In this document: positions 1,320-36,496 of the stretch, in pieces
Numbering within the stretch: position 1 is the stretch's first letter
How the letters are laid out: each line of letters starts with the position of its first letter
DNA from: Verrucomicrobiota bacterium
Lineage (GTDB): Bacteria > Verrucomicrobiota > Verrucomicrobiia > Limisphaerales > UBA8199
Direction of reading: 5' to 3'
DNA length: 64,000 bases
Assembly (NCBI GenBank): GCA_035358715.1
Contig: DAOPPX010000001.1
Coordinates: 18,412 to 82,411 of the forward strand
Notes under the pieces: model-generated
The model's database searches: none
Seen by the model: the letters and a program-made list of their open reading frames with translations, nothing else
What the model was told of the DNA's origin: nothing
Made by a program: the position numbers and the translations under genes

Positions 1320-2027
1320 TCACAAATCCAGGCAACGCTGGCCCAGGGCGGCAAACTTAGAAATGACCTGCCGGTCAAAACCGGGGGCGGAGATGTCGGC
1401 CAGCTCTGGCGCCTCTTCGTCGCCTGCACCGTTGTCGAACAGGTTCCGCGCGCCGACCGCAGCGAACTTGACCGTCTTCAGCGCCTCGGCGACGGTGACA
1501 GCCATGTCGCGAAGCATCTGGCGAACCGTGTTGGCAAATCGCTCCCCCTCGCCGACGACTGGATTCCGGGTACTGAAAGAGATGCTGCGATCGTGCTCGC
1601 TGATGCCGTCCCCCAACTGCCAGGTCCCGCTGCGTGAGAGCAACAGCCGCGTCACCCCCTTGCTCCAGGAGTTGAGCACCTCCACGTAGATGTATTTGCT
1701 GGGGTCGTAATTGTTCAGCAGGGCCAGGGTCTTACCCTTGAGATCCACCCAGAGCAGCCGCTTGATCTTGTTTTCAATGCCCAGTGATTTGGCCGTCTGG
1801 GCTTCTTTCTTGAGTTCGGTTTCGGAAGCCTCCCTGTATCCTTTGCGGAGCTTCTCGGAAATTTTCCCGTCAACGAAGGCGTGGAGGCTCGCAGGGTTGC
1901 TGAACGTTTTGACCTGGCTCTCAGAATTCCCGCCGATGCGCCCCCAACTGACGTGAACGCTCAGGCCTTCCACCCGGTACTGCCAATATTTGTTGTGTTG
2001 ATCTTCGCGGTTTATGTAAATGGGCAT
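1320..2027 (-). CDS. WGR-domain protein
   Basis: 235-aa ORF. N-terminus NKYWQYRVEGLSVHVSWGRIGGNSESQVKTF...KISEKLRKGYRE fits the WGR signature (W, WGRIG, KGY). C-terminal ~150 aa unassigned. Confidence 0.8.
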   Translation of the reverse strand: MPIYINREDQHNKYWQYRVEGLSVHVSWGRIGGNSESQVKTFSNPASLHAFVDGKISEKLRKGYREASETELKKEAQTAKSLGIENKIKRLLWVDLKGKTLALLNNYDPSKYIYVEVLNSWSKGVTRLLLSRSGTWQLGDGISEHDRSISFSTRNPVVGEGERFANTVRQMLRDMAVTVAEALKTVKFAAVGARNLFDNGAGDEEAPELADISAPGFDRQVISKFAALGQRCLDL

Positions 2028-2031
2028 GGAC

Positions 2032-2289
2032 TTACTCCTTTGGAATCGGGGTCAAATGTTGACGAAGCCAGTTGGCCTCCGCCTGGAGGGCGGTATCCCG
2101 GCGACGGAATGGTCCAAGCAAAGGCCCGTTGACCGGCCTGAGATCGACGTTCCATCCGCCATTTCCCGGCTCCACATGGCTGGCCCGCCGGGTGACAACC
2201 TTTCCTGCCTGAAATGCTTCGGCTAGATCATCCTGGTGGATAAAGCGAATCTCACCTTCACGGACTACGATCTGTAGTTCCTGGAGCAT
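2032..2289 (-). CDS. hypothetical protein
   Basis: 85-aa ATG ORF wedged between neighbours (8-nt and 4-nt gaps). Contains TRRASHVEP...LGPF segment. Family not identified. Confidence 0.55.
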   Translation of the reverse strand: MLQELQIVVREGEIRFIHQDDLAEAFQAGKVVTRRASHVEPGNGGWNVDLRPVNGPLLGPFRRRDTALQAEANWLRQHLTPIPKE

Positions 2290-2297
2290 TCTTGAGA

Positions 2298-2501
2298 TCA
2301 GTTCACCGGGGACCCGCCGAGGCGTTGTTTGGCGCCGGCCGCTTGTTGTTGATAGAACTCCGGCTTCTTCTGGACGGACTCTGTTCTTCCCAGAGCCGTT
2401 TCAAGGCTTTTGGTCAGGTCTTGGCAGGCTGATCCTTTGACGCCGGCGACGTCGATGTTCACCTTGCCGTCTTTGCCGATGATGAGCTTGATTTCCTGCA
2501 T
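2298..2501 (-). CDS. small protein resembling DUF2997
   Basis: 67 aa from internal ATG at 2501; the track ORF 2298..2696 runs into the upstream gene. MQEIKLIIGKDGKVNIDVAGVKGSACQDLT resembles, from memory, the DUF2997 family that accompanies DUF1257. Upstream stop is 2 nt away. Confidence 0.6.
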   Translation of the reverse strand: MQEIKLIIGKDGKVNIDVAGVKGSACQDLTKSLETALGRTESVQKKPEFYQQQAAGAKQRLGGSPVN

Positions 2502-2503
2502 GG

Positions 2504-2953
2504 TCAGTACTTTCTCAGGGTGATCACGGTCTCCTGTGTCGCCGTATCCAATCGTTCGCTGTAGCTCCAGCCCTTGGACTTGGCGAATTGCCGGGCTTTC
2601 CTCACAGCGACTTCCTTGGTGTATGCCGAGATAAGCGTCGTGCCGCCTTCGCCAATCTTTTCGCGAAGCCCGTATCCACCCTGCCAGAAATCCCACAGGG
2701 GAATGAACACATCGCCCCGCTTGACCAGGCCGACTTCATAAGCATTGCGGTTGCCCTTGACGGCTATGGCGTGGTCGCACTTGCCCAAGTCCGCTTTGGC
2801 GAATCCCAAAGGGATGGGGTAATCGCCCACGTGCTGGCCATACCAACGGTAGGTCCTTTGGTTCTCACGGAACTCCAGACCAAGCGCCGCGCAGACAGCT
2901 TTGAGCGCGTCGAGATCCTTGAGTTCAACGGCGATGACAGTGACGTGCGACAT
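2504..2953 (-). CDS. DUF1257 (Ycf35-like) family protein
   Basis: 149-aa ORF. MSHVTVIAVELKDLDALKAVCAALGL, KCDHAIAV, YEVGLV pattern recalled for DUF1257. Starts 19 nt after the AAA+ stop. Confidence 0.65.
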   Translation of the reverse strand: MSHVTVIAVELKDLDALKAVCAALGLEFRENQRTYRWYGQHVGDYPIPLGFAKADLGKCDHAIAVKGNRNAYEVGLVKRGDVFIPLWDFWQGGYGLREKIGEGGTTLISAYTKEVAVRKARQFAKSKGWSYSERLDTATQETVITLRKY

Positions 2954-2972
2954 AAAATGCGGAATTTTCGGT

Positions 2973-4592
2973 TCAGATGTCCAACTGCCGTCCGGCGCCG
3001 GTTTTGCCGGAGGCTTTGCCCTTCTCGACCCGGCTGGCGTTGAGCGCGTTGCTCTCGGCCCATTTCGCCATGGCCTCCAACTCCGGCGCCTTCGATTTGG
3101 AGAGCGGGTTTGTCTCCTTGATGGCCTTCAGGATGTCTTCTCCGGTCAGATCGCGGTCGTGGTGGAAGGCGGTGAAGAGCCCGCTGACCACAGCCTCCTC
3201 CAGTTCAGCGCCGCTGAAGCCTGCGGATTCGGCGACCATTTGGCTGATGTCCTTTTCGGCAAAGTCCTCCGCCTTGCGGCCATATTTCTGGATGTGGATA
3301 CGCACGATGTCCGCGCGCTCTTTATCCGAGGGCAAATCGACAAAGAAAATTTCGTCAAAACGCCCCTTGCGGAGCAGTTCTGGGGGCAGCCCTTCGATCC
3401 GGTTGACGGTGGCGATAACGAAGCAGGGCTTGGCCTTCTCCTGCATCCAACTAAGAAAATTTCCAAAAACCCTCTGGCTGGTGCCCCCGTCGGTGGTGCC
3501 GTTGCCTCCCATGCCGGCGAAGGCTTTCTCCATTTCATCAATCCAGAGAACGCAACTGCCGATTGCCTCGGCAGTCTGTATGGCCAGCCGCATGTTGCTT
3601 TCCGATTCGCCGACCAGGCCGCCAAACACGCGACCGATGTCGAAGCGGATCAAAGGCACCCCCCAGATATTGCTGGCCGCTTTGGCGGAAAGCGACTTCC
3701 CGCAGCCGGGGATTCCGACCAACAGGATCCCGCGCGGCATGGGCAGCTTGAATTCGCGCGCCTTGCGGGTGAACGCCTTGCTGCGCATCGACAGCCAGAG
3801 CTTGAGGTTCTCCAGCCCGCCGATGTCGTTGGCGGTCTGGGACGCCTCGAAGAATTCCAGGATGCCGGTCTTGCGGACGGCCAGGGCCTTCTCCCTGAGC
3901 ACCAGTTTGGAGATCGGCGGCCGGTTCTTCTTGTCGCCGGAAACGCTTTCAACGACGGCTTTGGCCAGCGCGTTTTCGGCCTCCACGGTGGTCAACCCCA
4001 TGGCGGCCTGGACAATTCGCTCCCGCTCGTCCTCAGGAATCGCCCCGATCTTGGCTTTATTGGGTTCGTAGAGTTTGGTGAAGACGTGTTCGATTTCCTC
4101 GCGTTGCGGCAGGTCGAATTCGAGCAGGGTGACGTCGCGCTCCAAATCTTTGGGAAGCCGGGGGACTGGACTGGTGATGATCAGGGTTTTGGAGGTTTGC
4201 TTGAAGTCGCGAGCAATGTCGCGCAGCAGCCGGACCACTTTCTCAGACGAAAAGAACGCCTGTAAATCTCGTGCCACATAGATCGTGTTATCAGCGCCGC
4301 CCTTGATAGCGATCAAGGCTTCAATCGGGTCTTCGGTCTGTTCAACGTTCTTCCCGTTGGGATCCATGAAGCCCTCAGTGTGGGACCAGATGCGCAGCTT
4401 GTATTTGGCCTCCTGAGCGGCTTTTTGAATGGCCAGTTCCGCGCGGCCCTCCTCTGGCGTAACGAGGTAAAGAATCGGATAGCGGGCTTTGACGTAAGGC
4501 AGGAGGTTCATGAATTCGACGCTTTGTCTCTGAAGAAACTGGTTTGCCGGAGTTTCCTTAATCTCGCTTCCTGGTGCGCAGATACGAGCCAC
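2973..4592 (-). CDS. Ycf46-type AAA+ ATPase
   Basis: 539-aa ORF. N-terminal KARYPILYLVTPEEGR (Ycf46-like). Walker A GIPGCGKS, Walker B VLWIDEMEKAF, LLRKGRFDEIFFVDLP. Confidence 0.9.
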   Translation of the reverse strand: MARICAPGSEIKETPANQFLQRQSVEFMNLLPYVKARYPILYLVTPEEGRAELAIQKAAQEAKYKLRIWSHTEGFMDPNGKNVEQTEDPIEALIAIKGGADNTIYVARDLQAFFSSEKVVRLLRDIARDFKQTSKTLIITSPVPRLPKDLERDVTLLEFDLPQREEIEHVFTKLYEPNKAKIGAIPEDERERIVQAAMGLTTVEAENALAKAVVESVSGDKKNRPPISKLVLREKALAVRKTGILEFFEASQTANDIGGLENLKLWLSMRSKAFTRKAREFKLPMPRGILLVGIPGCGKSLSAKAASNIWGVPLIRFDIGRVFGGLVGESESNMRLAIQTAEAIGSCVLWIDEMEKAFAGMGGNGTTDGGTSQRVFGNFLSWMQEKAKPCFVIATVNRIEGLPPELLRKGRFDEIFFVDLPSDKERADIVRIHIQKYGRKAEDFAEKDISQMVAESAGFSGAELEEAVVSGLFTAFHHDRDLTGEDILKAIKETNPLSKSKAPELEAMAKWAESNALNASRVEKGKASGKTGAGRQLDI

Positions 4593-4701
4593 GACTTCAG
4601 CGAGATCGCGTGCTGAGCGGAGCTTGTTTAGCCAACCACTCTCCTCTCCCGTGCGAACGGCTCACCTCGACACTCTGTGCCACCGACTTTAAGTTCATTT
4701 C

Positions 4702-5259
4702 GTGCGTGTAGCCTTCAAAGAATGGGAAATCGTCGTGGACGCGCTGGGCCGTGGGGATCAAATCCTCCTGTTGCGCAAGGGTGGTATTCACGAGGGACGC
4801 GGGGGCTTTCGCCCCGAGCATCAGCGGTTCCTGCTGTTTCCCACGCGCTACCATCAGCAGCGCGAGTGCGTGGTGGGCAGCGCTCAGGCGCGGTTCGACG
4901 AGATGTTGCACCAGGGGCCGGATTCAGGCGGGATGGTCCATTTGGAATTCGGCGCTGAATTGGTGGAGGCACGCCGACTGGAAACTCTCTCGCAGGCCAA
5001 GGCGCTGCGCGGCCAGCATATCTGGCGAGACGAGGTCATTGAGCGAAGATTTGACTGGGGGAAAGACCGGGCCATCTACGTGCTTGCCGTGCGGGTGCTT
5101 CGGTTGGCTCATGCCGTGGAACTCCCGATGACCACGGCCTACGCCGGCTGCCAATCCTGGATAAAGCTGGAGCGCGATATCGCCGCAGACGGCGCCACGC
5201 CGGTATTGGATGATGCGGCGTTTGAAAAGAAGCTCGCAGAGTTCCACACGGTCGGTTAA
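4702..5259 (+). CDS. DUF1802-like protein
   Basis: 185-aa ORF. KEWEIVVDALGRGDQILLLRKGGIHE...FLLFPTRYHQQ resembles DUF1802. Divergent from the AAA+ gene across a 109-nt gap. Confidence 0.7.
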   Translation: MRVAFKEWEIVVDALGRGDQILLLRKGGIHEGRGGFRPEHQRFLLFPTRYHQQRECVVGSAQARFDEMLHQGPDSGGMVHLEFGAELVEARRLETLSQAKALRGQHIWRDEVIERRFDWGKDRAIYVLAVRVLRLAHAVELPMTTAYAGCQSWIKLERDIAADGATPVLDDAAFEKKLAEFHTVG

Positions 5260-5362
5260 ATCCGGGTCGTCAGGTCGAGGTGCCGGGACAAAGTTTGGGG
5301 ACATTCGCTTCCCTTGAGCCCGGTTTGAGGCAGGTGCATTCTCTGGCAAAAAGCGTCCTGTT

Positions 5363-6565
5363 ATGTTGAACGCACCAGAATCGCCGAAGACTGCGACCAC
5401 GCATGCCGTGGCCGTGCCAGTGCTCGGGCGTGACGGAAACGGAGCAGCCGATGGTTGCCCGAGCATCATTTGCGACCTCGCCGAGGGGAACGCCTTCGTC
5501 GAGAGCTACGGGAAGCCGCACATTCCGGTAATGTCTTCATTTGGGGCCGGACGTTTGCATGCGTGCAGGATGAACGGATCTTGGGATTTGGAGCGGATGG
5601 CCTCGGGGTATGCCAGTGCGTTGTTCCGGTCCATCCGCAAGCTCGTCTCGCCGAACGGCAAGGAAACCACGAAGGCGTGGGATGACCTAACCTTTCGGTT
5701 CGGGCCTCGGGCGTTTCTGTACGCCGATGAAAACAGGATTATCGGATTTGCTGCTACGGCGGCGGAAGCCGAGCGTCTGGTGGGGGAGTGCAGCGAACAA
5801 TACAGGAAACCCGCGCCTGCGAGTCCGTCGGGAGGGGAGTTCCATTTAATCCAGCATGATGGGGACAAGATCGGAACGAAAAGGGTGCCTCTTTCTCCGG
5901 ACACGATCCTCGAACGGGGCGCCATGGATATGCACTACGGCGATGGCGCCGGAGAATGGCATGAGGGCTTCGTGCGGAAGCTTTGTGCGAGGCCCAATGG
6001 CTTGACCATTTTCGAGGGGAAACCCGGTACGGGCAAGACGTTCTACATCCGCCACCTTATGGGTGAGCTCAGGGAAAGGCATCGGTTCTACTTCATTCCG
6101 ACCTCGTCCATGGAAATCCTCTCCAAGCCTGGTTTTGTCGGTTTCTGGGCTGATCAGCGGCGGGAGTACTCAGAGGGTCAGTTTGTGGTAATCCTGGAGG
6201 ATGCCGACGCCGCCCTGATGGTGCGCGGTTCTGACAACCGCGACCAGGTCAGCGCTCTATTGAACCTCTCGGATGGAATGCTGGGCGATTTCTTGCGCCT
6301 GCAAGTCATTTGCACAATCAATTGTTCTGCTGCCGATATTGATCCAGCGCTGCTCCGGCCTGGCCGGATGCTCTGTCATCGGCTTTTCCGTCGCCTCGAC
6401 TACCAGCAGGCAGCCCGTCTCGCTCAAAGCCTGGGCAGGAAACTGCCGGTGGTGCGTGATTATTCCCTTGCGGAAATTTTTGCTGGCAACAGCGCGGAGG
6501 AAATCAACCGCCCACGCATTGGATTCGCGGCATGCGAAACGCAAGCTCCCTGTGGCCCGCGATGA
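5363..6565 (+). CDS. AAA+ ATPase with unassigned N-terminal domain
   Basis: 400-aa ORF. C-terminal classical AAA module: Walker A GKPGTGKT, Walker B VVILEDADAAL, LLRPGRM. First ~200 aa unassigned. Exact start uncertain. Confidence 0.85.
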   Translation: MLNAPESPKTATTHAVAVPVLGRDGNGAADGCPSIICDLAEGNAFVESYGKPHIPVMSSFGAGRLHACRMNGSWDLERMASGYASALFRSIRKLVSPNGKETTKAWDDLTFRFGPRAFLYADENRIIGFAATAAEAERLVGECSEQYRKPAPASPSGGEFHLIQHDGDKIGTKRVPLSPDTILERGAMDMHYGDGAGEWHEGFVRKLCARPNGLTIFEGKPGTGKTFYIRHLMGELRERHRFYFIPTSSMEILSKPGFVGFWADQRREYSEGQFVVILEDADAALMVRGSDNRDQVSALLNLSDGMLGDFLRLQVICTINCSAADIDPALLRPGRMLCHRLFRRLDYQQAARLAQSLGRKLPVVRDYSLAEIFAGNSAEEINRPRIGFAACETQAPCGPR

Positions 6566-6568
6566 TTT

Positions 6569-7312
6569 ATGCGCCTCCACGTTTTGAGCGATTTACACCA
6601 GGAACTTGGCGATTATACGCCCAAGCGACTGGATGTGGACGTGGTGGTTTTGGCAGGCGACATCCATCAGGGTGGTCAGGGCATTCAGTGGGCGCAAAGG
6701 CATTTTTCCAAGAAAGAGGTGATCTACGTCATGGGCAACCATGAATTTTACGGCTGCGACGTGCAGTATTTGGTGCAGGGCTGCCAGGCTGAAGCCCGAG
6801 GCGCCAACATTCACCTTTTGGAGAATCAATCCGTTCAAATCCGCGGCGTCACTTTTCTTGGATGCACGCTGTGGACGGACTTCAAGCTCTGGCCAAAGCT
6901 GGCGGAGGCAATGGCGGCGGCTAATGATTACATCAATGATTTCAGGTTGATAAGAGCCGGGTCCGGCCGGCTGCGCCCAGAAGACACGGTCCAATTTCAC
7001 CAAGCCTCCGTTGCCTGGTTGAAATCCGAACTCAGAAAGAGCGACCCAAAGAAAACAGTGATTGTGACGCACCACGCCCCCAGCGCCCGATCTATCCCGC
7101 CGCAAAACATCGGCGACATAATAAATGCCGCGTTCGCCTCAAATTTGGATTCGCTCATTCGTGCCAGCCGGGTTCCGCTCTGGATTCATGGCCACACGCA
7201 TTACAACGTGGATTACAAAATTGGCACGACGCGCATTTACAGCAACCAGCGTGGGTATCCCGAAGAGAAATTGCCGCGCTTTGAACCCGAAAGCATAATC
7301 GAGATTTTATGA
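6569..7312 (+). CDS. calcineurin-like metallophosphoesterase
   Basis: 247 aa. Motifs SDLHQE, AGDIHQG, GNHEFY, THHAP, GHTH. Starts 3 nt after the AAA+ stop. Confidence 0.88.
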   Translation: MRLHVLSDLHQELGDYTPKRLDVDVVVLAGDIHQGGQGIQWAQRHFSKKEVIYVMGNHEFYGCDVQYLVQGCQAEARGANIHLLENQSVQIRGVTFLGCTLWTDFKLWPKLAEAMAAANDYINDFRLIRAGSGRLRPEDTVQFHQASVAWLKSELRKSDPKKTVIVTHHAPSARSIPPQNIGDIINAAFASNLDSLIRASRVPLWIHGHTHYNVDYKIGTTRIYSNQRGYPEEKLPRFEPESIIEIL

Positions 7313-7899
7313 ATGCAGTTAGCGACGTGGGCCCCTCTAAAAGCAAATTCGCCGCTTTTGATTTTGAAACGGCTAACTATTCCCGCCTCAGCATCTGCGC
7401 CGCTGGACTGGCCGTATTTGAGGACGACACCCTGACAGAATCACTGTATTGGCTGGTTCGCCCGCCCAAAGGCCACGGCTGGTTCCGGGAGGATTTCATC
7501 GATTGCCACGGCTTGACGCATTTGGATGTTTTGGACGCGCCCGAATTTCCAGCCATCGCACCTGAATTCCTGTCCCGGTTGGAGAGTGCCGATTTCGTAG
7601 TCGCCCACAACGCGGAGTTCGACGTTTGCCATCTGCGGGACACCTTGACTTTTTTCGGTTTGACATGCCCAACGTTTAATTATCTCTGCACATGCAAGCT
7701 GTCCCGCCGAACCTGGCCAGAGCTGCCGAGCCACAGTCTGGGCGCGCTAGCCGCTCATATCGGGCACTCGTTCCAGCACCATCATGCCCGCGAAGATGCA
7801 GAAGCGGCCGGACGGGTTATGATTGCAATCATGCGACAAAGAACGGTTACAGCTTTGGCAGCACGCCGCGAATCACGACCATTTCTCCCGCCGGCCTAA
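7309..7899 (+). CDS. DEDDh 3'-5' exonuclease (DnaQ/RNase T-like)
   Basis: 196 aa. FDFETA (ExoI), AHNAEFD (ExoII), HHAREDAEA (ExoIII). ATGA start/stop overlap with the phosphoesterase gene. Confidence 0.85.
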   Translation: MNAVSDVGPSKSKFAAFDFETANYSRLSICAAGLAVFEDDTLTESLYWLVRPPKGHGWFREDFIDCHGLTHLDVLDAPEFPAIAPEFLSRLESADFVVAHNAEFDVCHLRDTLTFFGLTCPTFNYLCTCKLSRRTWPELPSHSLGALAAHIGHSFQHHHAREDAEAAGRVMIAIMRQRTVTALAARRESRPFLPPA

Positions 7900-7954
7900 A
7901 CAATCCTGAATATCATTGTTCCAAACAGGTCGGAAAGCCACAATCCTTACAGAA

Positions 7955-9781
7955 ATGACGAACACCAAAGAAGACGATGTTGGCCCCGGACTCGCCACAT
8001 GCGACAGGCCCAATCCGACCGGCGAGGAGCAAGAACATCGTGTGAGGCTGTCCCTGAAAGCCGTTGCCGATTTGAAGAATTACCGCTTCTTTGTTCCGTC
8101 TTACCAGCGCGGCTACCGGTGGGAGCGGGAGCAAGTTAAGGCATTGCTCAATGACTTGCATGAGTTCGAACAGCGTCAATGTGTCGCCAACAAGTTCTAT
8201 TGTTTGCAGCCTCTCGTAGTGGTGAAGCGATCAGAAAACAGGTGGGAAGTCGTGGACGGGCAGCAACGCCTGACGACGATTTTCCTCCTTCTTCAACTTT
8301 TGTATTCCGGCAACTCGCCCCTTTTTCACATCTTTTATGAACGTCACGGACAAGAATTGGCCGATCTGCTTTCAAACGAAGGTAAACGCAACTCACCTGA
8401 TGCTTATTTCATCAGCGAGGCAAAAAAGCAAATTAAAACCTGGTTGGAGGAACATCCTGAAAACAAGCTGCTGACCTTGATGGCCGATTGTGACAGCAAT
8501 GGCCTCTCTGCCAAATTCATTTGGGATGAAATTAGCAATCACGGCGAAGCCGTTCAAGCGTTCACGCGGCTGAATTCCGGCAAAATCCGGCTGAATGATT
8601 CAGAGTTGATCCGTGCCTCTCTGCTTCAGTCGGGAATACTGCAGGAAAATCTTCGCCAACGCTTTGCCATCGAGTGGGATCGGATGGAATGCCGGCTTCA
8701 AAATCCGGAATTCTGGAGCTTTTTGAACGGAAAGGGGCAAGCCCCGGACATCCGGATTGAACTGCTGTTCAGCCTGCTCGCAAAGAACCAAGGCCCAGGC
8801 GACCGAAAGATTTTCGACGAGTTCTTCGATCGTTTGGCGAACGCCGAGAAACCTTCCGACGCACGGGAAACTCTATGGGCGGAAGTTGGCAAGCTTTTCT
8901 CAACGCTGGAGGAATGGTGCGAAGATCATTGCCTGTTTCACCTCATTGGCTTCTTGATTGATCTACAAGGCCAAGGCGAGCTGAAGCGAAAAGGTCTAAT
9001 CTTGAGGTTGCTCGGGGATGGGGAGAAGTTGGTAAAAACACAGTTCGTGCTGGAGCTGAAACGACTGATCCGGGAAAAGGTGCTGCCCGACGTGAACTCG
9101 ACCCAGGCCGTAAAGCCTTACTTGGAAAAATTGGAGTACGGAAATGAGCAAATTAGGCATGTGTTGCTCTGCCTGAATCTTGCAACCTTGCTTGCGGACA
9201 AAACCAGGACCGCCCGTTTTTCCTTTGCCGCCTATCACGGGAATGATTGGGATATTGAACATATCCGCGCAACGAATCTCCGGGAACCGGAATCAGTGGC
9301 TGAGTTGCGTGATACGATCGAAATCTCGTCCAAATACCTTGAATATTTGATTCCCAGGGCCGATCGGAGGAGGGACCAGGTCCGTAATATCCAAGAGCAG
9401 ATCAAAACAGACTCTTTAGATCAAAGCGGTTTGCGCGAACGCTTCAACGCCCTTGAAACAATTCTTCGGGAAATGGCTCCCGAAGGCACGGACAGTGACC
9501 CCATGCCGGCGAGCGATAATATCAAGAACTTGACACTGCTCGATTGCGCCACAAATCGCGGGTTCGGGAATTGTTGGTTTATGGTGAAGCGCTGGTGGGT
9601 TCTGAGGGTTGAGCGAGAAAAATACCTGCTGCCTTGTACCCGCAATGTCTTCACCAAAACTTACACCAACAGACCGGTTACTTTGCTGAATTGGACCGAA
9701 TCGGATGCCAATGACTACTTGGAGGCCATGGCCAAAGTGCTCACAGAATTTTTCAAAGTCGCCTGGGAAACAATGTCATGA
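7955..9781 (+). CDS. GmrSD-like DUF262 + DUF1524 (His-Me finger) protein, putative type IV restriction enzyme
   Basis: 608 aa from ATG 7955 (TTG 7916 is possible). N-terminal QRGYRWE and DGQQRLTT (DUF262/ParB-like). C-terminal WDIEHI...NLTLLDCATNRGFGN (DUF1524-like). Confidence 0.85.
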   Translation: MTNTKEDDVGPGLATCDRPNPTGEEQEHRVRLSLKAVADLKNYRFFVPSYQRGYRWEREQVKALLNDLHEFEQRQCVANKFYCLQPLVVVKRSENRWEVVDGQQRLTTIFLLLQLLYSGNSPLFHIFYERHGQELADLLSNEGKRNSPDAYFISEAKKQIKTWLEEHPENKLLTLMADCDSNGLSAKFIWDEISNHGEAVQAFTRLNSGKIRLNDSELIRASLLQSGILQENLRQRFAIEWDRMECRLQNPEFWSFLNGKGQAPDIRIELLFSLLAKNQGPGDRKIFDEFFDRLANAEKPSDARETLWAEVGKLFSTLEEWCEDHCLFHLIGFLIDLQGQGELKRKGLILRLLGDGEKLVKTQFVLELKRLIREKVLPDVNSTQAVKPYLEKLEYGNEQIRHVLLCLNLATLLADKTRTARFSFAAYHGNDWDIEHIRATNLREPESVAELRDTIEISSKYLEYLIPRADRRRDQVRNIQEQIKTDSLDQSGLRERFNALETILREMAPEGTDSDPMPASDNIKNLTLLDCATNRGFGNCWFMVKRWWVLRVEREKYLLPCTRNVFTKTYTNRPVTLLNWTESDANDYLEAMAKVLTEFFKVAWETMS

Positions 9782-12213
9782 GTGAGCCCGATTACACAGG
9801 CCAGCGGCTCAGCTTCCTGGAATTGTTCAAGGAATACGGCTATGTCGAGATACCGCTAATCCAAAGAGACTACGCGCAAGGACGGGACTCCGCCAAAACA
9901 GTGCGGGAGCGGTTCTTGGATAGTCTGTTTGGCGCTTTGAAGGAGCATCAGCCGTTGAGCTTGGACTTCGTTTATGGAGAAGTAAGAGCTTCTCCAGGCA
10001 ACCCAGCTTCAAAATGTTTCGAGCCGATTGATGGTCAACAACGACTCACCGCTTTGTTTCTGCTTCACTGGTATCTCGCCTGCATTGCCGAGAAGCAGGA
10101 TGAGTTCGAGAAGCTATTGCGGCACGGGGACGAAAGAACGCCCCGATTTCGATACTCGGTCAGAAACAGCTCCCATGAGTTTTTTGACAAACTCTTGGCC
10201 TTCTTCCCTGATTTGACGCGTCCGTTGCCAGAGCAGATAAAGAACCGTGCATGGTTTCGTGGTGCGTGGGAAGGAGATGCCACCATTCGTGGTGCGTTGG
10301 TGATGCTGGACGCGATTCAAAAGAGATTCCCGCCCGATGAAACAAAGGCGTTTTACGATATGCTATGCTGGGACAATTGCCCAATCACCTTCGATGTCCT
10401 GAACCTGGGGAATTTGGGTTTGTCCGAAGAAATTTACGTCAAGATGAACGCCCGGGGAAAGGAACTGACCGGTTTTGAAAAGTTCAAGGCGTGGTTGATC
10501 GAGAATCGTTGGGAAAACTACAAGCTGTTATGGCCTGAGAACACAGATGCCACAAAACAATGGCCAATATTGCTGGATGGAGACTGGCTGGATTTATTCT
10601 GGTCATTTCGGCCGCCAGATGATCGAAATCCCGCAAAATCGGTTTCAGAGGTGTTTTTTCGGACGTTCTTGGCGCTCGCGGTGAATTTTCACGCCTCGGA
10701 TAATCCTTACACATCCGAAAGTCCACTTCCAGAAGAATGGATGGGCGCCGACAGCGATGAACGGCGAAACTTATGGGACAAGATTTTTACACCGACGGCG
10801 CTGCAAAGCGTGTTCAAGCATCTTCGGCACTTGTCCTCATTGACAAAGAAAGGGCTGGATGATTTGCGAGAGACATTGAAAAGCAATGGAATCCAGTTTT
10901 CAGAAGATTCCACGAAGCTTTTCTGTCCGTTCTTTGAGGGCGATGAGGGTGACTCGAAGGTTGTAATTCGGGAAAGGCTGTGGCTTCACGCGCTGTGTTC
11001 GTTTTTGGAATACTCGAAAGCCGCGCAAGACGCATTCCGTGATGACTGGTTTCGGGTAATCCGCAACCTAATTGAGAACTCCGAACCCCGGCAGGAGAAC
11101 TTCGCGACTGCCGTCCAAAGCATCTCGACGCTGGCGAAAAGGGTGACGTGCCTGGCCGAGTCCGAATGCGTCCTGAACCGTCCTGTGCTCTGTGCGGTCA
11201 AGGATAGTATGTTTCAAGATTTGCAAGGGTTTAACGGCGAGCAAAAGAGAGAGGAGGCCGAGAAAGCCCGTTTGATTCAAAACCAAGACGGCCCGAAATG
11301 GGAGAAGACACTACTTGAAGCGGAAAACCATCCTGTTTTTCTCGGTCAGATCGGCTTACTTCTGGATGACAATCCGAATCTTGATGTTTTCCAGAAACGC
11401 TTGGCTGTGGTCAAACACCTGCTCGATGCCAACGGGAGTAAAGTTGGTCAAAACGAGTATTTGATAGCCCGCGCCGCATTGAGCCTATGTGAACCCATAG
11501 AATTGGGGTACCAGCAACGTCTGGAGTTCAAAGATACAGCAGCCCAATGGAAATATCTGCTAGGTTCGACCGCATTAAAAAAAGACGACATGCCAACACC
11601 AAAAGGCATGTTTCGGATGGGAATGCGGAAGCTAATTGATCACCTTAGAGATTGCCGGACCGGAGGCTTTGAATCGAAAATGAAGGCATTGTGTCATAGC
11701 GGAGCGGGACAAGATTGGGCGGCCGATGTCATTCGCTACGGTGACAGCCTCCTTCAGTGGGGGCCTGACAAATGGATTTCGCGTGAACAAAAGATTCAGA
11801 ATTATCGCAATAACGGGACCTTCATCTTCCATATCGCAAACAGCTCGGAGCAGGACATCATGTTGGGGGAACGAGCTCGTTGGAGAAATGGCACCATCAA
11901 ATTGCTTTTGGACGTGGGCTGGAACATAAAGGAAGGGGGAGAAGTGCCCGGGATTGGCACAACTCCGCCTTTTTATAAAGGTCATGTATTCAACCTCGAT
12001 CTTCCGCAAGAAAATCCAACTTGGCGTGTTTGGATTGGATACGATCAGGTGGTTTTGCGACAGCGAAACACGGACGCCCCCCAAGGCGCGGCGGAAAATT
12101 GGGCCAACGTGCGAGGATTCGAGTTTACCGAAGGGATGCCGAGCGAGAAAATCGCAGAATGGATCCAGCAAAAAGTCACATCAAGCCAATTCAAATCCGT
12201 GCAGCAATCATGA
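9778..12213 (+). CDS. DUF262 domain protein with long unassigned C-terminal region
   Basis: 811 aa. IQRDYAQGR and DGQQRLTALFLL motifs. No HNH/DUF1524 motif seen in the remaining ~600 aa. ATGA overlap with the upstream gene. Confidence 0.85.
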   Translation: MSEPDYTGQRLSFLELFKEYGYVEIPLIQRDYAQGRDSAKTVRERFLDSLFGALKEHQPLSLDFVYGEVRASPGNPASKCFEPIDGQQRLTALFLLHWYLACIAEKQDEFEKLLRHGDERTPRFRYSVRNSSHEFFDKLLAFFPDLTRPLPEQIKNRAWFRGAWEGDATIRGALVMLDAIQKRFPPDETKAFYDMLCWDNCPITFDVLNLGNLGLSEEIYVKMNARGKELTGFEKFKAWLIENRWENYKLLWPENTDATKQWPILLDGDWLDLFWSFRPPDDRNPAKSVSEVFFRTFLALAVNFHASDNPYTSESPLPEEWMGADSDERRNLWDKIFTPTALQSVFKHLRHLSSLTKKGLDDLRETLKSNGIQFSEDSTKLFCPFFEGDEGDSKVVIRERLWLHALCSFLEYSKAAQDAFRDDWFRVIRNLIENSEPRQENFATAVQSISTLAKRVTCLAESECVLNRPVLCAVKDSMFQDLQGFNGEQKREEAEKARLIQNQDGPKWEKTLLEAENHPVFLGQIGLLLDDNPNLDVFQKRLAVVKHLLDANGSKVGQNEYLIARAALSLCEPIELGYQQRLEFKDTAAQWKYLLGSTALKKDDMPTPKGMFRMGMRKLIDHLRDCRTGGFESKMKALCHSGAGQDWAADVIRYGDSLLQWGPDKWISREQKIQNYRNNGTFIFHIANSSEQDIMLGERARWRNGTIKLLLDVGWNIKEGGEVPGIGTTPPFYKGHVFNLDLPQENPTWRVWIGYDQVVLRQRNTDAPQGAAENWANVRGFEFTEGMPSEKIAEWIQQKVTSSQFKSVQQS

Positions 12214-12465
12214 CTACTACGCCAGCATTGCGGATACAAAGCCTCTAGTTTTGGCGCCACGCCTGACGGCTTCCTGGTGTCCATGCCCACCCAAAAGGAC
12301 TCAAGGAAGGGAAGCACGTCCTGTATCGAGGCGCTGAAGAAGCCAAATACGAGGGGTGGTATTGCGGCGCCAACTCATTCCACTTTTGTCTGCCTCACCA
12401 CCTCATCCTGCCCACTGTCCGCCAGGCGCAACTGAGGCAGGCACGAGGCAGCGTTTTGCTAGCGA

Positions 12466-13443
12466 TCAATTCGCCTGTTCCGCTGACCGCCGATTGTTGA
12501 ATTCCGCCCTGAGTCGGCGGAACCGTTTGGGGCTGGTCCGTGGATCCCAGCCAAGGCCGGCGCAAAGGAATTCATGTCTCTTTTCGCCTTTCAGCTGACG
12601 GCGGCGAGCTTCTTTGTCCAGATCACGAAGTTTCGAGGCGTCTTGCATCCGCTGGGCGAGGCCTGCGGCCAGGGCCGAACCTTGGCGCCCGGGAACCCGC
12701 GCGCGGTGAAGCATGGCAATCGCCTCCCAGCGGATGTCGCGTTTGGGGTCGAACGACCAATAGGCTGGGATGTGGATCATGGTTCCATAGGGCGTCAGGT
12801 TGACCGCGAGCTTGAGCAGTAGCGGTTCGTCGTTCTGCATCCCGTAGAGATTCCAGCGCAGGCAAAATGCGTCGAATGCCGCCTGGAACACATCATCTCG
12901 GCGCCGGCAGTTTACGGAAAATGACGGACGCAGGTTGCGCTCGGCGCCCATCGTGCGACGGATGACGCCTTTGTGGTCTCGGTAGGGCCTGACGTTGAAT
13001 GCCGTTTTGAGGCGCTTCCATTGGCGACGTAGGTCAGGACTCGTTTTGATGGCCAGTTCGTTCTGGGCGTATTTGGCCTGGGTTTGAACGATGTTCTCAT
13101 AGGTGCCTTTCTGGACGTGGAGTTCGTGGGCCGCTACAGCGGCGCAAATTGTTTCGTCGGGTGGATCTGGCAGAAAATCGATGAGCAAACGGTGCCTGGA
13201 GGTCAGGCGTTTTCCCTTTTCCAGAGCCGCGAGGCAGTCCTCCAACACGTCTTGGATGTTGAACGGCCAGAGTGTGATTGGGATGAACATCCAGTTGTAG
13301 AGGAGACGTAGCGAGTGGGCCTGGACGGCATCAAGTTTCGAGGCAGCCGCGTGGTAGCGCCGGAGGGCCCCCTCCGTCCAATCCGCCCGGTGATAGGCGA
13401 GGACCTGGAGTCGTTTCAGATCGAGGTCGAGGGGCGAGGCCAT
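12466..13443 (-). CDS. hypothetical protein
   Basis: 325-aa ATG ORF with balanced composition. No motif recognised. Confidence 0.6.
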   Translation of the reverse strand: MASPLDLDLKRLQVLAYHRADWTEGALRRYHAAASKLDAVQAHSLRLLYNWMFIPITLWPFNIQDVLEDCLAALEKGKRLTSRHRLLIDFLPDPPDETICAAVAAHELHVQKGTYENIVQTQAKYAQNELAIKTSPDLRRQWKRLKTAFNVRPYRDHKGVIRRTMGAERNLRPSFSVNCRRRDDVFQAAFDAFCLRWNLYGMQNDEPLLLKLAVNLTPYGTMIHIPAYWSFDPKRDIRWEAIAMLHRARVPGRQGSALAAGLAQRMQDASKLRDLDKEARRRQLKGEKRHEFLCAGLGWDPRTSPKRFRRLRAEFNNRRSAEQAN

Positions 13444-13559
13444 TTGTTCAGGCGGGGGCCGTCGGCGCCGCAGTGGGGGCAGGAGGCTAGTGAGCCGGCG
13501 TCGATGGCCTCAAAGGCCATCGGCTGTGGGCAATTGTTGCACTGGCATTTTACAAGCAT
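13416..13559 (-). CDS. small zinc-ribbon protein (not in ORF track, under 60 aa)
   Basis: Hand-translated 47-aa ORF MLVKCQCNNCPQPMAFEAIDAGSLASCPHCGADGPRLNKWPRPSTSI, with CxxC...CxxC. Its 3' end overlaps the start of 12466..13443 out of frame. Confidence 0.45.
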   Translation of the reverse strand: MLVKCQCNNCPQPMAFEAIDAGSLASCPHCGADGPRLNKWPRPSTSI

Positions 13560-14040
13560 CGGACCTAGTTGTTGTGCGCCGGGCAATCGAGGCGGCTACA
13601 AGTCACACTCCGAATATTGCTCCGCGCAGCGGGCGGCGATTCTAATCCCGATCCGTGGCGCTGAGTGTATGCAGGTGGTTTCTTACCGTCAATGTTGGAG
13701 TTGAGGCGGTTGAGGCGGTTATGGAGTGGGAAATGGGGGTGCTGGGCGCGACATGGCAAAGCAATGCTTCAATGCGGCCGGTTACCCACCTGATAAAATG
13801 GTCGTCCCGGAGAGGCGGCTCCCTCTCGTCTCGGAGTACCAGGCTGCCGTGGCCACATGCAGCCGAGCAATCTCTACCTCGCGTGATCACCCTCCATTAA
13901 AGGGAAGGAGTTGCTATCGTCAACATTTCGGATCTGCTGGCGGTCTTTGCCAGTCTCCCTCCATCGCGGCTTGCGTATCTCAGCTACGGGACGAACAAAA
14001 TCGAAAAATTGCAGCGTGGATATTCCTAGCCAGCGGTCCG

Positions 14041-14604
14041 TTATGCTGTGGTCCCTTGTCGGTCGGCAGTGACACGTCGGTTCGCCAATGGAACGCGGCG
14101 GCATTTGCAGACCTTCTTGGGAGTCCGCGAAAGGAGAATTAGAGGGCCAGGATCGGGAGCGACGCCTTCGAGTCCTTCCACCACTTTGCGGAGGGTCTTG
14201 CGTTGTCCCAGAGCCTTCCTCAAGAACTCAAGCGAGACGTGAACTTCCGTCGCCTCCGTATTGGTGAATTCCCATTTGGCCAGGTGTTTCATCCCGGGCC
14301 GCCACCACTCGATCTGGCCACCATATTCATGGCGTGCATCCGTACGTTTGACGAAGGCCAACCTGTGCTCCACCAGGAACAGGTCGAGCTCATCGGTCAA
14401 GTAGGGCGCCAGTTCGCTGTTGCAAACTTTAAGGGAAGAGTTGCCACTGATCTGTTCAGCTTCCTTGCGAAGGCTTGCCTCATCGTCGCAGCCGCCGTAC
14501 TCCCGCGTCATTTGAACGGCGAGCAGGTGTTCCAGCAGCGCGTCAAAGACCGCGGAGGCTATCTTGCCGCCGATCTCGTAACGAATGGGGAAACGGTCAG
14601 CCAT
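14041..14604 (-). CDS. hypothetical protein
   Basis: 187-aa ATG ORF, 12 nt downstream of the preceding gene. No motif recognised. Confidence 0.6.
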   Translation of the reverse strand: MADRFPIRYEIGGKIASAVFDALLEHLLAVQMTREYGGCDDEASLRKEAEQISGNSSLKVCNSELAPYLTDELDLFLVEHRLAFVKRTDARHEYGGQIEWWRPGMKHLAKWEFTNTEATEVHVSLEFLRKALGQRKTLRKVVEGLEGVAPDPGPLILLSRTPKKVCKCRRVPLANRRVTADRQGTTA

Positions 14605-16321: not shown

Positions 16322-17458
16322 TCAAGCGGAGACCGCCGGGATCTGCGGAGGAGGAAAGGGGGGGTCACTGGCCGACCTTTCTCTAACCAGGCCTGAAGGA
16401 TCGTGTGCAGATCCTCCCACCGCTCCTGTTATCGAGCCGTTCTTTGCTTTTGGTACCGCGGCTCCAAGTCCAACGAAAACAGGCCTAATCCAGATGCGTT
16501 TAATCAGGAGGAGTTGTGGGCCATGGCGTTGATTACGCCAGTGGCCGCGCCGCCAATGTGCGTGTGGCGTGCGATGGGTGCCGGTCGGCGCGGGGTTCTC
16601 GTAGGTGATGCGGAAGTGTTCGCCGATAAAATTGGGTTTCCAGGTGGCCCGGCGGACAACTTTGCCGTTCTTCTTTTTGGCGGCGCGCAGAATGCGCTCG
16701 GAGGTCACAAGTTCCGGTTCGGCGGTCATGCCCAAAAGGATGTTGATGGACAGATGCGCGAGGAGGTTGACGGTGCTCTTATCCTGCTCGTGAGTGGTGT
16801 CAGACCAGCCGACCGACGAGAAGAGTTCGATATCAGCAGCCAACAGGTCTTTGACCTGAGTGCCGGGTATAGGGGTGCGCGAATCGTAATGCACGGGCCT
16901 GCCGTCCTCCCATGCCAGCATAGCGGCGATGAACAGCGGTTGGGGATTGGCGACAGTCAGCGGCGGCATCTGCCAGGCACCGATGCGAATCGGAGATCTG
17001 GCCACACAGCCGGCCGGGACGCTGGCAACCGTGAGAAAGGGAACGAGGCAGCCGAAATAGCGCAGACTGAATTCGGCAGGCAGCATGAAAAGCATGGCCG
17101 GCATGGGGAACCGAATCTCATCGAAGCGCAGGTCGTCAGGGGCCTCGGTATGGAGGAGGGCTTCGCAGAAATCGGCGGCGACGAAGTAGGTGGGAACTTG
17201 GTAGCGGATGAGTTGCGCGGCGGTCAGACGCAGGGAGGCGATGGTGACGTCCTGTGAGGGTTGGAGGCCGCGCTGGGCAGTTCTGGCCGCTGTGTAGGCC
17301 GAGAGCATGAACACCTCCGGGTGGGGGAAGCCGCGAGGGATGCTGAAATGTTTGGGACAGCAGAGCGCCCGCAAGGACGGAGATTCCTGGTCGATGCAGG
17401 CGAGGATCTCGTGCAGTGGCCAGCCGTGGAATTCGGCGCGGATGTTGCCTGGGGTCAT
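16322..17458 (-). CDS. hypothetical protein
   Basis: 378-aa ATG ORF, first gene after a 274-nt divergent gap. C-terminal basic HWRRGHWRNQRHG segment. The antisense ORF 16403..17257 looks like a shadow. Confidence 0.6.
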   Translation of the reverse strand: MTPGNIRAEFHGWPLHEILACIDQESPSLRALCCPKHFSIPRGFPHPEVFMLSAYTAARTAQRGLQPSQDVTIASLRLTAAQLIRYQVPTYFVAADFCEALLHTEAPDDLRFDEIRFPMPAMLFMLPAEFSLRYFGCLVPFLTVASVPAGCVARSPIRIGAWQMPPLTVANPQPLFIAAMLAWEDGRPVHYDSRTPIPGTQVKDLLAADIELFSSVGWSDTTHEQDKSTVNLLAHLSINILLGMTAEPELVTSERILRAAKKKNGKVVRRATWKPNFIGEHFRITYENPAPTGTHRTPHAHWRRGHWRNQRHGPQLLLIKRIWIRPVFVGLGAAVPKAKNGSITGAVGGSAHDPSGLVRERSASDPPFPPPQIPAVSA

Positions 17459-36128: not shown

Positions 36129-36496
36129 GAGTGCTGGTTAGAGATGGCCTCCAAGGCGCTGACAAGCCCCCGCACGTAATCCGGGTGTGTGACGTTGACT
36201 CCCGCACAAGCGTGTGCCAGCACCACAGCTTCCACCCCATCAATCGCGGAATTATGATTGGCACGGTGTTCCGCCCCAAAACCAGCTTCTGCTTCGGTGA
36301 TGTGAAGTGTGGATTTGACGGCGCCGCCGCCCCTGCCATCGAGTTGCAAGGAGATGCTGTCAGCGGCGAGATGGAGTTCGATGCTTTTCACGGTTTGTTT
36401 GAGGTCCCCGTCGCGCCGGAGCGGACTGGCCTGTCTCCACCGTCGGATTTGAATACCCCGGTTTTGGCTCCCGCGATTGCATTCCTGTTGCATCAC
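36125..36496 (-). CDS. hypothetical protein
   Basis: 123-aa ATG ORF with ATGA overlap to the ligA stop. Confidence 0.55.
   Translation of the reverse strand: MMQQECNRGSQNRGIQIRRWRQASPLRRDGDLKQTVKSIELHLAADSISLQLDGRGGGAVKSTLHITEAEAGFGAEHRANHNSAIDGVEAVVLAHACAGVNVTHPDYVRGLVSALEAISNQHS

Follow-up and report, generated by a model that had tools for sequence, protein, structure and literature searches.

The window analysed here is a 64,000-nt stretch of DNA from a Verrucomicrobiota bacterium (assembly GCA_035358715.1, contig DAOPPX010000001.1, positions 18,412 to 82,411). It carries a block of five closely spaced genes for an AAA+ ATPase (AAA400), a metallophosphoesterase, a DEDDh exonuclease, a GmrSD-type enzyme (GmrSD-608) and a second DUF262 protein (DUF262-811). 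The five genes are probably not one co-evolved system but a mosaic in which swappable cargo sits on a conserved backbone, with the last two genes encoding an autonomous two-subunit modification-dependent enzyme. The backbone comprises AAA400, the DEDDh exonuclease and a protein of 325 amino acids (aa) whose gene lies next to the block; the three are co-inherited across Verrucomicrobiota. Cargo would occupy two positions: slot 1, between AAA400 and the exonuclease, filled here by the metallophosphoesterase, and slot 2, after the exonuclease, filled here by the DUF262 pair. Relatives would swap this cargo through recombination in the conserved backbone genes. A plausible-looking operon would in this way split into an enzyme of a known kind and a backbone of uncharacterised genes.

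The five-gene block

All coordinates are positions in the window unless a locus is named. The five genes lie on the plus strand. AAA400 (5363-6565, 400 aa) is followed by the calcineurin-like metallophosphoesterase (6569-7312, 247 aa) and the DnaQ/RNase T-like DEDDh 3'-5' exonuclease (7309-7899, 196 aa). GmrSD-608 (7955-9781, 608 aa from the ATG) combines a DUF262 domain with a DUF1524-type His-Me nuclease, and DUF262-811 (9778-12213, 811 aa) combines a DUF262 domain with a large helical C-terminal region. An alternative TTG start at 7916 would extend GmrSD-608 to 621 aa; public gene calls take the ATG at 7955. The gene for the 325-aa protein, a member of an uncharacterised family, lies on the minus strand at 12466-13443 and is the right anchor of the variable region, AAA400 being the left one.

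The junctions, read in the sequence, agree with the five open reading frames (ORFs) and the spacing given in an earlier note on this DNA. AAA400 stops at 6565 and is separated by a 3-nt gap (TGA-ttt-ATG) from the ATG of the phosphoesterase at 6569. The phosphoesterase and DEDDh genes share an ATGA overlap at 7309-7312, a 55-nt gap separates the DEDDh stop at 7899 from the ATG at 7955, and a second ATGA overlap at 9778-9781 joins the two DUF262 genes. A scan of the gene block gives no excess of promoter-like or terminator-like sites over shuffled expectation, and no Rfam match is found in 4400-14200. Co-transcription of the five genes is plausible, and their tight spacing probably allows read-through transcription from the backbone. 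GC content drops to about 0.50 across 8000-12000. Third codon positions have a GC content of 0.57-0.65 in the genes for the phosphoesterase, DEDDh and the DUF262 pair, compared with 0.67-0.76 in the anchors and neighbouring genes, a contrast that agrees with a backbone carrying swapped cargo.

Cargo exchange between close relatives

The closest relatives of the locus keep its flanks and differ in what lies between them. Locus L152 aligns with the window at 86-93% nucleotide identity up to 6525 and again from 12488, which places the exchanged region at 6525-12488 (blastn). Between these anchors L152 carries a 177-aa o181-like gene, a DEDDh gene with 71% nucleotide identity (the only retained similarity) and genes for proteins of 381 and 434 aa. 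L153 also keeps both anchors; its slot 1 is empty and its slot 2 holds genes for proteins of 373 and 268 aa. The 373-381-aa proteins of these two loci (L152 9622-10767, L153 11829-12950) are 90% identical, have no Pfam match and stand directly after DEDDh. The genes that follow them are unrelated, the 434-aa product in L152 being repeat-rich and that in L153 having 268 aa.

In L069 the exchange point lies within a backbone gene. This locus matches the window at 88-91% nucleotide identity through an upstream gene for a 539-aa AAA protein, AAA400, the phosphoesterase and the first two thirds of DEDDh. The identity collapses at about 7580-7730, inside DEDDh, and beyond this point L069 encodes an unrelated single GmrSD of 573 aa. 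Mapped breakpoints thus fall at the 3' end of AAA400, inside DEDDh and at the stop codon of the 325-aa gene, suggesting that cargo is exchanged by homologous recombination within backbone genes. Cargo differs even between nearly identical backbones: the AAA400 proteins of L013 and L014 are 96% identical, and the cargo is McrBC in the former and GmrSD in the latter. With conserved flanks, differing cargo in relatives and mapped junctions, the locus is a hotspot.

L069 also shows a clean 765-bp deletion (window 4910-5674 missing, at about 2130 in L069) that removes the first ~104 codons of AAA400 and fuses the upstream DUF1802 gene to AAA400 codon ~105. Since AAA400 is truncated at its 5' end while the phosphoesterase, DEDDh and GmrSD genes are intact, AAA400 appears dispensable in this metagenome-assembled locus.

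The co-inherited backbone

Occupancy of the locus was tallied in a census of about 110 loci, taken from a DEDDh-anchored metagenome scan and from 32 GTDB loci. The canonical order is 325-aa gene, AAA400, slot 1, DEDDh, slot 2. The 325-aa gene adjoins AAA400 in 23 of the 32 GTDB loci, mostly directly upstream and on the same strand, and DEDDh lies downstream of AAA400 in about 18. Unlike in most loci, the 325-aa gene of the window is downstream of and convergent with the AAA400-to-811 block, and in the window's sub-lineage it forms the right boundary of slot 2. Given this difference in orientation, the block was considered as a site-specific invertible segment; no flanking inverted repeats are found.

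Pairwise identity of AAA400 rises and falls with that of DEDDh (r=0.81) and with that of the 325-aa protein (r=0.80), and DEDDh identity is not in excess where two loci share a cargo type (residuals -0.018 vs -0.011). Because the identities co-vary and same-cargo pairs lack such an excess, the three backbone proteins are co-inherited and the cargo is swapped independently. The alternative that DEDDh travels with the cargo is rejected, as its identity follows that of AAA400 and not the cargo type. The window's own DEDDh is an exception to this tracking and a recombinant outlier. In L065, AAA400 is missing between the 325-aa gene and DEDDh.

The exonuclease matches PF00929 (RNase_T) with 59.7 bits as well as the PADLOC DEDDh model. 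Its catalytic residues D18, E20, D105, H157/158 and D163 are invariant in 11 orthologues, and, as the earlier note had stated for the block, its domain call and intact catalytic motifs hold in Pfam, PADLOC and NCBIfam searches and homologue alignments.

AAA400 contains an N-terminal β-rich domain (aa ~55-210) and one AAA module, with the PF00004 match limited to aa 216-340. The Walker A motif GxPGTGKT, the Walker B motif LED and the RPGR motif are all invariant in 21 homologues. A sequence-profile search of the PDB matches only the AAA module of Cdc48/Afg2. A Foldseek comparison with the PDB returns Bcs1 and Bacillus subtilis YjoB as best matches (E 5e-7 to 3e-4, probability ~1, 280-360 columns), with TM-scores of only 0.18-0.26 from a poor AlphaFold2 model built from a shallow alignment (pLDDT 54.6). 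In tblastn searches AAA400 matches proteins of jumbo phages, among them one with the annotation 'AAA+ ATPase and BCS1 domain'. From this low-confidence model AAA400 would be a soluble Bcs1/YjoB-like AAA+ ATPase, and a literature search finds no defence system that combines a Bcs1-like AAA+ protein with an exonuclease.

The 325-aa protein belongs to a family of 367 representatives at 50% clustering. It has no match in Pfam or the PDB, even with a 61-sequence profile, and none in PHROG or PADLOC. Its AlphaFold2 model, built from a shallow alignment, is poor (pLDDT 59.5) and gives no fold match.

The backbone genes might instead be lineage-specific housekeeping genes, for example for DNA repair or protein quality control, with the locus a passive integration hotspot. 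The best homologues of the 325-aa protein are 75-88% identical, and AAA400 is well conserved too, at 60-87%: its orthologues, which span 50-87% identity overall, are found only in metagenome-assembled genomes (MAGs) of Verrucomicrobiota, where identity declines roughly with taxonomic distance. Neither protein is found among the 2.9 million viral contigs of IMG/VR, and L050 is flanked directly by alr, purD and aconitase genes. The same IMG/VR result led us to drop a phage or satellite origin of the backbone. Several features do not fit housekeeping genes. Two backbone copies occur in one MAG (L021, L023), two divergent variants exist within Prosthecobacter, AAA400 is truncated in L069 and missing from the 325-aa/DEDDh interval in L065, and the outer flanks are not syntenic between loci. 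Neighbouring genes of other loci include an integrase with an excisionase-like HTH gene, DnaB, PIN with FtsK, HipA with MazE/PIN and Wadjet, and TraG; integrase, TraG, toxin-antitoxin and Wadjet genes recur nearby. From these neighbours, the non-syntenic flanks and the two copies in one MAG, we place the backbone in defence-rich and mobile-element-rich DNA. A housekeeping role is improbable, and less likely than a functional coupling of backbone and cargo.

In L050 (7184-7818), and likewise in L002 and L096, an insertion on the opposite strand separates the 325-aa gene from AAA400. It consists of a HigB toxin gene and a gene for a presumed antitoxin of 121 aa, and it adds a third point of insertion to the backbone.

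Slot 1 and the metallophosphoesterase

The phosphoesterase matches PF00149 (Metallophos) with 53.2 bits, and the motifs DxH, GD, GNHE, H and GHxH are complete in its translation. It matches phrog_1649 at 1e-52 and is 38-44% identical to jumbo-phage phosphoesterases. Its distribution shows that it is an optional occupant of slot 1. Among the metagenome loci the AAA400-DEDDh interval holds a 181-aa unknown protein in about 15, a phosphoesterase in about 14 and nothing in about 12, and of the 32 GTDB loci, 3 have a phosphoesterase of the window's type. In two Verrucomicrobiaceae loci, L008 (3477-4220) and L009 (1932-2678), slot 1 holds a protein of ~247-273 aa from the uracil-DNA glycosylase (UDG) superfamily, reminiscent of glycosylase-based defence against modified DNA.

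This distribution bears on the idea, put forward in the earlier note, that the AAA+ ATPase, the metallophosphoesterase and the exonuclease form a separate three-gene defence system. In the window a gap of just 3 nt and the ATGA overlap couple these genes tightly, and their order recurs in L011, L076, L090, L102 and L111. PADLOC also matches the phosphoesterase to PDC-S10 and DEDDh to PDC-S48. Both matches are partial and at domain level only, spanning model positions 10-117 of 223 in PDC-S10 and 56-172 of 411 in PDC-S48. The phosphoesterase is absent from most loci, its place being taken by the 181-aa protein, the UDG-like protein or nothing, and L063 has a phosphoesterase at the same position that gives no tblastn match to that of the window at 1e-4. 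The AAA+ protein has its constant partner in the 325-aa protein, whose gene lies outside the block that the earlier note described. The trio does not hold together as a unit, and we rank a separate three-gene system as the least likely of the readings, a very doubtful one.

Slot 2 cargo

The slot 2 tally covers 74 loci, duplicates removed, in which at least 1 kb of sequence follows DEDDh. Our own DUF262 hidden Markov model missed some subfamilies (L069, L073, L089, L103) and was supplemented by a search for the motif DG[QN]QR and by Pfam checks. DUF262 proteins occupy 30 of the 74 slots, as pairs of several size classes, as single genes for proteins of 570-800 aa and as fusions. Another 10 hold PD-(D/E)XK_4 nucleases, which are full-length matches to the PADLOC candidate PDC-S26 at 1.5e-81. 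McrB with McrC is found in 3 slots and the unknown family of 381-aa proteins in 2; the remaining 29 hold other genes. None of the 32 GTDB loci encodes the window's own two DUF262 proteins. Across the census the five genes are not co-conserved as a set, an outcome that the earlier note had named as refuting its reading. A 96-aa DUF6915 protein with no match in PADLOC is encoded in or near the locus, before DEDDh or after the nuclease cargo, in L065 (6948-7238), L083, L084, L087, L089, L101, L103, L113, L117, L134 and L147.

The DUF262 pair

The last two genes are GmrSD-type, as the earlier note had described them. GmrSD-608 matches GmrSD_N (PF03235) at 3.8e-29 and GmrSD_C (PF07510) with 18.7 bits, under the 23-bit Pfam cut-off; fused relatives of the pair carry precomputed PF07510 matches. 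The DUF262 motifs YQRGYRW, DGQQR and FxRLN are invariant in 23 homologues, as are the His-Me residues WD[IV]EH436I and N525...N534. The PDB matches of GmrSD-608 are the DUF262 structure 9jfl_B and SspE, and the PADLOC models Orf5, HEC-06 and SspE match its N-terminal domain; the Pfam and PADLOC matches are confined to the N-terminal ~100-200 residues. DUF262-811 matches PF03235 alone (5e-21), and its three DUF262 motifs are at least 90% conserved among homologues. The alignment of these homologues shows no H-N-N or other nuclease motif in the C-terminal ~550 residues, which bears out the reported lack of an HNH/DUF1524 module. NCBIfam gives no match for either protein. The two are very distant paralogues.

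The strongest link between the two proteins is their fusion in other genomes. A search with DUF262-811 returns many proteins of ~800 aa and some of ~1,400 aa. In the 1,416-aa Verrucomicrobiota protein P0253, residues 4-576 align with GmrSD-608 at 47% identity and residues 614-1367 align with DUF262-811 at 44% identity. The ~1,400-aa fusions P0253, P0265, P0280 and L135 are 37-47% identical to GmrSD-608 and ~44% identical to DUF262-811, with P0280 matching the 608-aa half in the same way as P0253, and L149 encodes another fused double-DUF262 protein. Such fusion is strong evidence that the two products act together, and from the alignments the pair is a split form of a ~1,400-aa double-DUF262 protein, new in both its split and its fused form but of a kind already known.

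The pairing of a GmrSD-type and a DUF262-only gene is kept in L062, L063, L150 and L151. L150 (Opitutaceae TAV1) and L151 (a Vibrio sp. defence island) have the same gene order, GmrSD first, without the AAA+, phosphoesterase and DEDDh genes, and the pair is therefore autonomous in these lineages. A UDG-superfamily protein (L150 809-1630) is encoded near the stand-alone pair of Opitutaceae TAV1.

By analogy with TgvAB, BrxU and SspE, GmrSD-608 and DUF262-811 would form a heteromeric, NTP-dependent type IV restriction enzyme that acts on modified DNA. NTP binding or hydrolysis and the sensing of modified phage DNA would fall to both DUF262 domains; this DNA would then be cut by the His-Me finger of GmrSD-608.

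Mosaic or integrated platform

A further reading takes the backbone and the nucleases as one Verrucomicrobiota-specific defence platform. The backbone, with the phosphoesterase or the 181-aa protein as alternative accessories, would cooperate with plug-in modification-dependent nucleases of the GmrSD/TgvAB-like, McrBC and PDC-S26 kinds. The exonuclease and phosphoesterase might widen nicks or breaks, and the AAA+/325-aa pair might regulate or license the nuclease. Several observations favour such cooperation or weigh against the mosaic. Per kilobase, DUF262 ORFs are 23 times as frequent in the 4.5 kb that follow DEDDh as elsewhere in these loci (44 in 289 kb vs 5 in 772 kb). The recognisable occupants of slot 2 are nearly all nucleases, mostly modification-dependent, and 43 of the 74 slots hold one of just three nuclease kinds, a narrower range than in a typical promiscuous hotspot that hints at functional coupling. 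In many loci DEDDh and the nuclease gene overlap slightly or are only 8-60 nt apart, and the DEDDh-DUF262 pairing survives the absence of AAA400 in L065. The nearest looked-up relatives of the pair (44-58% identity; four homologues, five places) all follow a DEDDh orthologue. DUF262 cargo accompanies 8 of 10 phosphoesterase loci and 16 of 35 loci with other slot-1 states, a trend only (Fisher p=0.078, kinship ignored). The UDG-like gene, the phosphoesterase and DEDDh resemble a toolkit for processing DNA lesions and ends, and the backbone always stands in surroundings rich in defence or toxin-antitoxin genes. Confidence in the structural models of the backbone proteins is low (325-aa protein pLDDT 59.5, AAA400 54.6).

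Other observations speak against the platform. The same type of pair stands without the backbone in other lineages, 29 of the 74 slots hold unrelated or unknown genes, and many AAA400/325-aa loci have neither DEDDh nor a recognisable nuclease. DEDDh alleles do not track the cargo type, and AAA400 is 5'-truncated in L069 next to intact phosphoesterase, DEDDh and GmrSD genes. An integrated platform is thus rather unlikely, although it is the most serious competitor of the mosaic. The earlier note's alternative, in which the upstream genes are an accessory layer of the GmrSD pair, has evidence on both sides. It gains from the enrichment of DUF262 genes after DEDDh, but the slot also accepts McrBC and PDC-S26, near-identical backbones carry different cargo, and the type of pair stands alone in Opitutaceae and Vibrio. 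We favour the mosaic, and our best guess for the backbone is a DNA-processing module that is associated with defence islands and is not needed by the pair.

Tight gene spacing can therefore mislead the discovery of defence systems. The fusion proteins link a split TgvAB-like GmrSD enzyme to a ~1,400-aa double-DUF262 form, and the backbone offers a genome landmark for locating defence cargo in Verrucomicrobiota, a phylum in which, to our knowledge, almost no phage defence has been studied experimentally. Three uncharacterised families deserve study, namely those of the 325-aa protein, the slot-1 protein of 181 aa and the cargo protein of 381 aa. Cooperation of the backbone with interchangeable modification-dependent nucleases, if real, would bring a new modular principle to type IV restriction and to defence against phages with modified DNA.

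Genomic neighbourhood

Directly left of the window (L057 1-4156) are genes for the Wadjet proteins JetC and JetD and a BrxR-like WYL regulator; Wadjet also stands beside the fused-GmrSD locus L149. Within the window, 1320-5259 holds a minus-strand operon and a divergent DUF1802 gene (4702-5259). The operon encodes a WGR protein (1320-2027), an 85-aa ORF between WGR and DUF2997, DUF2997 itself (2298-2696), a 149-aa ORF and an AAA ATPase of 512-539 aa (2973-4592) that matches PADLOC IetA at 5.8e-22. The block from WGR to DUF1802 is ~91-93% identical at the nucleotide level in L152 and L069 and is absent from all other AAA400 loci. It is a candidate conflict system.

On the right side of the block, small minus-strand ORFs without annotation form a run that extends to the 325-aa gene. 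This run is headed by a 378-aa ORF (16322-17458, minus strand) with a precomputed Pfam match to an AcrVA2-like family (PF26125). The region from ~13600 to 60000 is a long, mainly minus-strand ORF array, mostly without Pfam matches, which may be a large integrated element. It includes an AAA ATPase, a radical SAM enzyme, a DnaJ-like protein, SNF2/DEAD and UvrD helicases, an NAD-dependent ligase (36493-38475), a 1,584-aa Ig-like protein on the plus strand (30910-35664) and a T2SSE-type ATPase (46610-48217).

Comparison with known systems

Searches of PADLOC, NCBIfam and the literature find no described system of exactly this composition, as the earlier note had supposed. Its parts resemble known ones. 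Proteins that combine DUF262 and DUF1524, such as GmrSD, BrxU and SspE, are NTP-dependent nucleases directed against modified DNA. GmrSD-608 shares with the single-chain enzymes Eco94GmrSD, BrxU and SspE a predicted DUF262 NTPase/sensor and a DUF1524 His-Me nuclease. The window differs from these enzymes in having a second, DUF262-only protein that is genetically coupled to the first or, in relatives, fused to it.

By domain composition the closest characterised analogue of the pair is TgvAB of Vibrio cholerae, in which TgvA has DUF262 only, TgvB has DUF262 and DUF1524, both are required, and phages with glucosylated hydroxymethylcytosine are restricted (PMC11411939). Like TgvAB, the pair would be a two-gene type IV system with one DUF262-only protein and one DUF262 protein bearing a DUF1524 His-Me nuclease. 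The QR, DGQQR and FxxxN motifs are intact in both proteins, and the genes are adjacent and apparently translationally coupled. The gene order is reversed, however, with the nuclease-bearing subunit first in the window, and the pair is not embedded in a type I restriction-modification operon. The H...N spacing of GmrSD-608 (H436...N525/N534) is also longer than H571/N602 of TgvB implies.

AAA400 may resemble mitochondrial Bcs1 and YjoB, as far as its low-confidence model allows, in a Bcs1-type N-terminal domain, a single classic AAA module, an LED-type Walker B motif and RPGR arginine fingers. It differs from Bcs1 in showing, by eye, no N-terminal transmembrane anchor and in being encoded with a 325-aa partner and an exonuclease.

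Defence hotspots with conserved flanks are known, among them the core defence hotspots of Pseudomonas and the P2/P4 hotspots of Escherichia coli. The locus described here shares with them conserved flanks, hypervariable defence-rich cargo that differs between close relatives, and junctions that lie in the flanks. It differs in that the flanks are a co-inherited three-gene module, that two slots lie within this module, and that the recognisable cargo consists mainly of modification-dependent nucleases. The locus is the defence-hotspot theme in a new form, with a co-inherited and uncharacterised three-gene backbone.

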